Shown piece by piece: positions 2,750-2,836 of a DNA stretch of 64,000 bases. Under the pieces are notes generated by a model, which did no database searches, was not told where the DNA came from, and was given only the letters and a program-made list of their open reading frames with translations. The position numbers were made by a program, and so were the translations under genes. The stretch is from Escherichia coli (lineage in GTDB: Bacteria > Pseudomonadota > Gammaproteobacteria > Enterobacterales > Enterobacteriaceae). The first letter of the stretch is position 1. The number at the start of each line of letters is the position of its first letter. Location of the stretch: the NCBI RefSeq assembly GCF_003334305.1, contig NZ_QOWS01000007.1. One strand, written 5' to 3'.

Positions 2750-2836
2750 TTGGCGGATGCGGCGTAAACGCCTTATCCGCCCTACATGTGCAATCCCGAA
2801 GGCCGGATCAGACGCGGCAAGCGTCGCATCCGGCAT
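2750..2836. repeat. REP/BIME-type palindromic repeat cluster in the eutH-eutG intergenic region
   Basis: Two inverted GCGGATG...CATCCGGC-type units (gcggatgcggcgtaaacgccttatccgcc / gccggatcagacgcggcaagcgtcgcatccggc). Confidence 0.6.

Follow-up and report, generated by a model that had tools for sequence, protein, structure and literature searches.

The window analysed here, a stretch of 64,000 nucleotides of the Escherichia coli chromosome running from eutA to pdeF, carries five intergenic sites made up of canonical E. coli REP palindromic units (classes y, z2 and z1-like), which are partly paired into BIMEs. We put the probability at roughly 0.88 that these are ordinary REPs and BIMEs and that the copy inside the eut operon is a by-product of repeats settling in a permissive slot and does not serve as a dedicated, conserved regulator. 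Such elements were first recognised in the 1980s; identifying them matters little by itself, these being ordinary, known repeats. Mildly notable are the allele series between eutG and eutH and its recurrence across genera, which fit the known behaviour of BIME-2 elements.

A REP unit of E. coli (group-2 REPs of the E. coli REPtron) begins with a 5' GTAG and forms an imperfect palindrome interrupted by an AA/GC bulge; y units measure 35 nt, z1 units 29 nt and z2 units 37 nt. A BIME consists of a REP paired with an inverted REP. In BIME-1, z1 and y are joined by a long, conserved L linker that frequently contains an IHF site, whereas BIME-2 combines z2 and y through a short S linker and forms tandem copies whose number varies between strains. 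Throughout, the strand of a unit is the strand on which its GTAG is 5'.

A 1-kb query around the first site matched every complete E. coli genome (5,426 of 5,426), and the match covers genes annotated as eutH and eutG. Alignment to K-12 MG1655 gave the order eutA-eutH-eutG ... maeB, talA-tktB, ypfG ... dapE-ypfN, ypfH ... purC, bamC ... yfgD, hda, in agreement with the gene names and arrangements that a preliminary description of this DNA had assigned to the five sites. The eut genes lie on the minus strand, with the eutG stop codon at 2837-2839 and the eutH ATG at 2718-2720. The intercistronic gap between them spans 116 bp, the largest such gap in the eut operon, whose last gene is eutR according to Salmonella eut genetics. 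As a side observation, window positions 1-93, past the eutA stop codon on the eutB side, are 100% identical to the eutB flank of K-12 and unlike the end of the CPZ-55 prophage, and we therefore take the eut operon to be uninterrupted in the window strain, which lacks the prophage that splits the operon in K-12.

Of the REP sequences at the five sites, eight are complete units; they are accompanied by two short tail fragments and a partial duplicate of 19 nt, and every site contains visible GCCGGATG...CATCCGGC-type palindromes. A pattern search of the window with CTTATCMGGCCTAC (up to 2 mismatches) returned 9 matches against 0.38 expected, a number reached in none of 100 shuffles, and the full z2 consensus matched twice against 0.00 expected. 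A profile derived from the eight units gave E values down to 1e-10, with nothing elsewhere in the 64 kb below an E value of about 0.5. Because this profile is circular, we built a second, independent one from REP units of non-Escherichia genera only. With this second profile, six of the eight complete units, as well as the partial copy, scored E values between 1e-8 and 7e-4, and in the 64 kb nothing outside the five sites scored below an E value of about 1. Its scores were poor for the z1-like unit (E=0.38) and for the mutated z2 unit of site 1 (E=3.8), the latter still being covered by a match to the z2 consensus. The preliminary description had placed REP-like units at five ranges, and its boundaries lie within 1-6 nt of the units resolved here; consensus, own profile and non-Escherichia profile all match, no failure against the REP consensus occurred, and by the profile scans its list of five is complete for the window.

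The units are imperfect palindromes of 27-38 nt. In six of the eight the 5' GTAG is intact, the exceptions being GAAG in the z2 unit of site 1 and AGTGG in the y unit of site 3. Their common hairpin accounts for 97.8% of alignment cells as paired, compared with 23-38% in slid controls, and compensatory changes are present at 4 of its 12 pairs. All seven y and z2 units share a 2x2 internal loop, which reads AA/GC in five of them, CA/GC in the site 1 z2 unit and AA/AC in the site 3 y unit; the z1-like unit of site 3 lacks the inner stem. Single units fold at -12 to -23.6 kcal/mol, and the core RNA folds of sites 1, 2, 3 and 5 have z values from -3.7 to -6.8. Folds that include the coding flanks give weak z values (-1.6 at site 1 and -2.1 at site 4), and only the core folds are informative.

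Copy number and placement are likewise those of a dispersed intergenic repeat. Among the matches listed, the 37-nt unit of site 2 occupies 30-72 places per genome (median at least 40) in 5426 of 5426 E. coli genomes. Every unit in the window is extragenic; the two tandem sites (eutG-eutH and bamC-purC) and three convergent ones (sites 2, 3 and 5) agree with the genome-wide split reported for REPs, about 40% tandem and 60% convergent. Rfam 15 covariance models, applied to the whole window at the gathering threshold, matched no family.

Table 1. REP units, fragments and linkers at the five sites of the window (strand, strand on which GTAG is 5'; E values from the eight-unit profile unless stated otherwise).
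Site	Feature	Position	Strand	Remarks
1 (eutG-eutH)	y unit	2751..2785	-	35 nt, GTAGGGCGGATAAGGCGTTTACGCCGCATCCGCCA; E=1e-9; non-Escherichia profile E=1.1e-8
1	linker	2786..2797		12 nt, head-to-head, S-type, ATGTGCAATCCC
1	z2 unit	2798..2835	+	38 nt; 2 mismatches to z2 consensus; E=2.9e-7
2 (tktB/ypfG, convergent)	tail fragment	16161..16169	-	GCCGGATGC
2	z2 unit	16174..16210	-	complete, 37 nt, GTAGGCCGGATAAGACGCGTCAGCGTCGCATCCGGCA; E=4e-9
2	partial duplicate	16211..16229	-	19-nt direct duplicate of the GTAG-proximal arm of z2; E=0.003; non-Escherichia profile E=6.5e-4
3 (ypfN/ypfH)	y unit	27481..27516	+	degraded GTAG (AGTGG); E=1e-8; starts 4 nt past ypfN stop, stem 7 nt past
3	z1-like unit	27520..27546	-	short, 27 nt, GTAGGCCTGATAAGACTGTATCAGGCA; E=7e-4
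4 (bamC-purC)	tail fragment	32916..32924	-	GCCGGATGT
4	y unit	32928..32962	-	single, TTCGGAT/ATCCGA variant; E=4e-10
5 (yfgD/hda, convergent)	z2 unit	53044..53081	-	38 nt; 0 mismatches to z2 consensus
5	linker	53082..53103		22 nt, head-to-head, GAATACTATGGATTAACTTCGC
5	y unit	53104..53138	+	35 nt, TTCGGAT variant; E=3.5e-10; ends 13 nt from hda stop codon

The units differ in how far they are organised into pairs (Table 1). The preliminary description spoke of clusters or BIMEs at all five sites, which holds for sites 1, 3 and 5; sites 2 and 4 each consist of one complete unit plus fragments and are not true clusters. To that description we add this single-unit nature of sites 2 and 4, the position of a z2 unit 1 nt past the eutG stop codon and the high polymorphism of the eutG-eutH locus. 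In a predicted fold of site 2 (16161-16229), the tail fragment pairs with the 19-nt duplicated arm around the complete z2 hairpin, which would give the site a nested look. At site 5, the z2 unit is abutted by a separate, non-REP hairpin with an 8-bp stem, GATGTGCTCC...GAAGCACATT, at 53015-53044 directly past the yfgD stop codon.

By their composition, sites 1 and 5 are BIME-2-like pairs of y and z2. At site 1 the likeness extends to the y-S-z2 arrangement with its head-to-head linker, to a repeating unit of 100 bp and to a copy number that varies between strains. Site 5 has the same composition, but it is a fixed single copy with a longer linker and does not show the copy-number variation of BIME-2. 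Site 3, where the y and z1-like units stand tail-to-tail with a 3-nt spacer, resembles BIME-1 (RIP) elements in that it is a single copy in which y and a z1-like unit face in opposite directions; the L linker is absent, however, and the site is best called an atypical pair, not a strict BIME-1. A BIME-1 with an IHF-type L linker was rejected at all sites, the linkers of 3, 12 and 22 nt being too short, and inspection by eye of the site 5 linker found no match to the IHF consensus.

Much of this inventory is already known from K-12, where four of the five sites carry names. A catalogue in the supplement of a preprint lists REP178 (eutG-eutH, tandem), REP180 (ypfN/ypfH), REP181 (bamC-purC, tandem) and REP182 (yfgD/hda, convergent); from the numbering only, the tktB-ypfG element is inferred to be REP179. 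The MG1655 RefSeq record lists no REP repeat features. K-12 and the window agree in the gene pairs that flank the sites and in the classes of the units, with near-identical sequences at sites 2, 4 and 5. Site 1 differs in that the window has one BIME and K-12 two, and in the z2 unit, where GTAG has become GAAG and the AA of the bulge CA in the window and K-12 retains GTAG and AA. At site 3, the short z1-like unit and the degraded GTAG of the window correspond to an intact y unit and a longer z2-like unit in K-12. The same preprint supplement lists K-12 Rho-binding (rut) peaks at 2568056-2568201, 2597592-2597725 and 2618004-2618104, overlapping REP178, REP181 and REP182 and corresponding to about 2669-2814, 32836-32969 and 53081-53181 in the window. 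Relative to eutH, purC and hda, all three are antisense, a strandedness that hints that these REP regions may help to terminate antisense transcription; at REP178, no sense-strand rut peak is listed for K-12.

Within the eut operon, the REP copy separates two cistrons of one transcript. Read along the eut mRNA, the inverted z2 unit comes first, followed by the linker and then by the y unit in REP (GTAG-first) orientation. This y unit is a locus-specific, compensated stem variant (GGCGG/CCGCC), and the linker ATGTGCAATCCC is the same in every BIME copy of the locus in K-12 and B strains. The z2 and y hairpins are predicted to fold independently, at -22.3 and -20.9 kcal/mol with z values of about -4.3 each, and the predicted fold leaves free some 30 nt of unstructured RNA 3' of the y unit that contain the eutH Shine-Dalgarno sequence. 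No terminator-like site coincides with the REPs between 2500 and 3100, where neither hairpin is followed by a U-tract and terminator-like matches lie only inside the eutH coding sequence, and no promoter-like site was found in the eutG-eutH gap. An intrinsic terminator or an internal promoter in this gap was rejected on these grounds, and the intra-operonic placement given in the preliminary description stands. A literature search on a REP between eutG and eutH returned nothing relevant.

Several units lie close behind stop codons. The z2 unit of site 1 starts 1 nt after the eutG UAA and its stem 2 nt after; the corresponding distances are 4-7 nt for ypfN, 10 nt for ypfH and 13 nt for hda. Distances beyond 15 nt are found for yfgD (29 nt) and bamC (112 nt), and the tktB stop codon is followed by the tail fragment of site 2 at 8 nt and by the full unit at 21 nt.

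The eutG-eutH locus is variable within E. coli, as shown by the comparison of REP copy number across strains that the preliminary description had proposed: the locus holds one, two or three BIMEs, a remnant or a replacement. In an even sample of 60 rows across all E. coli genomes, the one-BIME allele of the window accounts for about one third and the two-BIME allele of K-12 for about 38%. A further 15% or so show an alignment-break pattern, and both representatives checked (2/2) carry three BIMEs, as in the B lineage. The repeating BIME unit measures 100 bp, and in multi-copy alleles a 15-nt tail-to-tail linker joins the copies. A decayed 99-bp remnant, found in O157:H7, makes up about 7% of the sample, and in about 5% there is no REP and a 138-nt sequence stands in its place. 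This replacement belongs to a dispersed repeat of its own, which 5397 genomes carry at a median of 15 places each. In E. coli 5CRE51 (locus L005, 493-630) it is G+C-rich and contains CCCTCACCC...GGGTGAGGG motifs; it may resemble the 'BoxC' family.

Outside E. coli, a degenerate pattern for the EutH N-terminus located 33 loci, and in 30 of them the gap could be delimited by anchoring on a C-terminal EutG motif. Several Citrobacter, Pluralibacter and Yokenella have an empty slot of 27-32 nt, and a single unit is present in Salmonella diarizonae and C. sedlakii. Tail-to-tail pairs of a different type fill the slot in the C. freundii and C. koseri groups and Klebsiella-type REPs fill it in Klebsiella; the arrays of other Escherichia comprise 6, 9 and 11 units. 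The slot has thus been colonised repeatedly and independently, with unit types and orientations that differ between genera. Two metagenome-assembled genomes stand apart. The gap in a Citrobacter MAG (HRGM_Genome_0066, L015) has an E. coli-like 116-nt y/z2 layout next to an EutG whose C-terminus does not differ from the E. coli representative, and a Pseudocitrobacter MAG (L014) has a y unit identical to that of the window. Sequence identity of this kind suggests mis-binned contigs or recent transfer in both.

How might the slot have been filled, and what would its occupants do? REPs would be spread and amplified by a single-copy TnpA-REP (RAYT) transposase that acts on single-stranded DNA. The GAAG of the site 1 z2 unit is predicted to abolish recognition by TnpA-REP, and the unit should be no substrate, because the E. 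coli system tolerates no mutation of GTAG. Once transcribed, a unit would fold stably (about -12 to -23 kcal/mol) into a hairpin that could block 3'-to-5' exonucleases and bring about partial termination, in part dependent on Rho. Units at the convergent sites (2, 3 and 5) may serve as two-way transcript-end elements; for sites 3 and 5 this is supported by their K-12 equivalents (REP180 and REP182), which are listed among mapped bidirectional terminators.

Known systems give these effects some precedent. REP325 (yjdM-yjdN) stabilises the transcript upstream of it and is also a partial, partly Rho-dependent attenuator; like site 1 it lies between two cistrons of one operon, but it comprises 12 units versus one BIME (2 units) at site 1. 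The intercistronic malE-malF REPs, as described in PMC12306157 (citing Newbury et al. 1987), protect the upstream mRNA from 3' exonucleases. The eut copy shares with them the placement of REP hairpins between two cistrons of one transcript; the effect was demonstrated for mal, and the eut hairpin in addition abuts a stop codon. According to the same source, Liang, Rudd and Deutscher (2015) found that REPs less than 16 nt from a stop codon lower translation of the upstream gene; the class is characterised by stalled ribosomes, mRNA cleavage and tmRNA tagging, which reduce the yield of the upstream protein. By position only, the units behind eutG, ypfN, ypfH and hda (at most 15 nt) belong to this class, as do about half of all REPs, so this placement is not distinctive. 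The class of intrinsic terminators, defined by a G+C-rich hairpin plus a U-tract, does not describe the REPs, and the terminator-like site of bamC (33047-33068) is separate from the site 4 REP. Across the genome, the log2 upstream/downstream ratio of tandem gene pairs has a median of 0.96 where a REP is present and of -0.09 in controls, an upstream bias that rises with REP conservation, and a preprint describes REPs without a uniform change of mRNA half-lives. The general, hedged remark of the preliminary description, that REPs can stabilise upstream mRNA or partly terminate transcription, agrees with this literature on tandem pairs.

For the eut operon itself, we see about an even chance that the eutG-eutH hairpins confer a modest, allele-dependent polarity, which would favour eutS-eutG transcripts over eutHABCLKR. 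With its stem 2 nt past the eutG UAA, the z2 unit may also interfere to some extent with the end of EutG translation. The many lineages in which the slot is empty, decayed or substituted argue against a strong or required role in the operon, as do the rut peaks at REP178, which are on the antisense strand only, and a higher base mean for eutH than for eutG in uninduced K-12. On balance, we rate the eut copy more probably a by-product of repeat colonisation, its effect being small, than a dedicated regulator.

The closest competitor, to which we give somewhat less than an even chance, drops the small effect altogether and treats the REPs as selfish or neutral passengers that have no measurable influence on expression, with the eutG-eutH gap as the most permissive landing pad of the operon. 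The spread of alleles speaks for it, since relatives carry anywhere between 0 and 11 copies and the REP is reduced to a remnant in O157:H7, exchanged for another repeat in about 5% of E. coli and missing from a 27-32 nt gap in several genera, and so does the loss from the window's z2 unit of the GTAG that TnpA-REP requires. Expression in uninduced K-12 points the same way, with DESeq base means of 49.8 for eutG and 92.7 for eutH and thus no upstream bias, at low counts and with the operon uninduced. On the other hand, REP325, malE-malF and the genome-wide data on tandem pairs make it unlikely that two mRNA hairpins as stable as -21 and -22 kcal/mol have no effect at all, and independent colonisation in Escherichia, Salmonella, several Citrobacter groups and Klebsiella fits recurrent benefit as well as permissiveness.

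Recurrent benefit is the core of an unlikely alternative, in which selection would use REP copy number to set the ratio of upstream (shell, EutE, EutG) to downstream (EutH, EutBC, EutR) products and the gain of EutR autoinduction, the allele differences being adaptive. Occupation of the largest intercistronic gap of the operon again and again across genera would fit such tuning, as would copy-number alleles that are common within E. coli and the general upstream bias of tandem pairs; the frequency of empty, decayed and substituted alleles and the lack of a listed sense-strand rut peak at REP178 count against it. In its most far-reaching form, which we regard as quite improbable, eutG-eutH would be a recurrently colonised repeat slot whose copy number (0-11 units in Enterobacteriaceae, 1-3 BIMEs in E. 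coli) is a selected, heritable dial of upstream versus downstream eut products. If true, this dial would set the threshold and gain of ethanolamine induction across lineages.

Also quite improbable, in our view, is that the palindromes work chiefly as DNA, by binding DNA gyrase, Pol I or IHF or by acting as cruciform or topological insulators, and not as RNA hairpins: the literature does attribute binding of gyrase, Pol I and IHF to BIMEs, but the long L linker that carries the IHF site of BIME-1 occurs at none of the five sites, and the nucleoid-compaction model for REP325 was recently tested with a negative result. That the sites are no repeat family at all, being chance G+C-rich palindromes or ordinary intrinsic terminators, is vanishingly improbable, for although isolated 10-mer half-sites such as GCCGGATGCG turn up by chance within coding sequence and mapped K-12 terminators coincide with sites 3 and 5, full units occur at five sites only and at E values down to 1e-10, the hairpins of site 1 have no U-tract, Rfam offers no competing RNA family, and consensus matches, both profiles and a copy number of at least 40 per genome for the 37-mer rule it out. 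The half-sites in coding sequence (10-mers at 5777, 7731 and 17052 and a 14-mer at 15728) were set aside as chance matches, as they have neither a palindromic partner nor a profile match.

In the eutG-eutH slot, natural alleles form a series that runs from empty and decayed through 1, 2 and 3 to as many as 11 units and includes another repeat, all within an inducible operon that has its activator gene downstream. This makes it a convenient test bed for whether REP copy number tunes polarity, mRNA stability or translation termination in vivo.

The other four sites range from variable to essentially fixed. Site 2 is 19-20 bp shorter in about a quarter of sampled E. coli, consistent with alleles that lack the 19-nt duplicate, and longer or substituted alleles occur too. 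Site 3 has two major alleles, of which the K-12 type is 29 bp longer and accounts for about 52% of records. Sites 4 and 5, present in 5426/5426 and 5419/5426 genomes, have a constant length. The REP of site 4 lies downstream of the bamC terminator-like hairpin, which has a T-run and is on the minus strand, and of a PurR box with one mismatch (33016-33031), and upstream of the purC ATG (32862). From this order of elements, the REP is probably part of the purC 5' leader and not of a 3' UTR, which would be an unusual place for a REP.

Two further features of the window lie near pur genes. Between ypfJ and purC, positions 31223-32148 contain about 760 bp more than K-12; RefSeq genomes identical over this stretch are annotated there with a vapB-vapC type II toxin-antitoxin module, which 1615 of 5426 E. 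coli genomes possess and K-12 lacks. Upstream of purM, a PurR-box-like sequence, TCGCAAACGTTTGCTT (2 mismatches), stands at 56195-56210, as expected for the purMN promoter.
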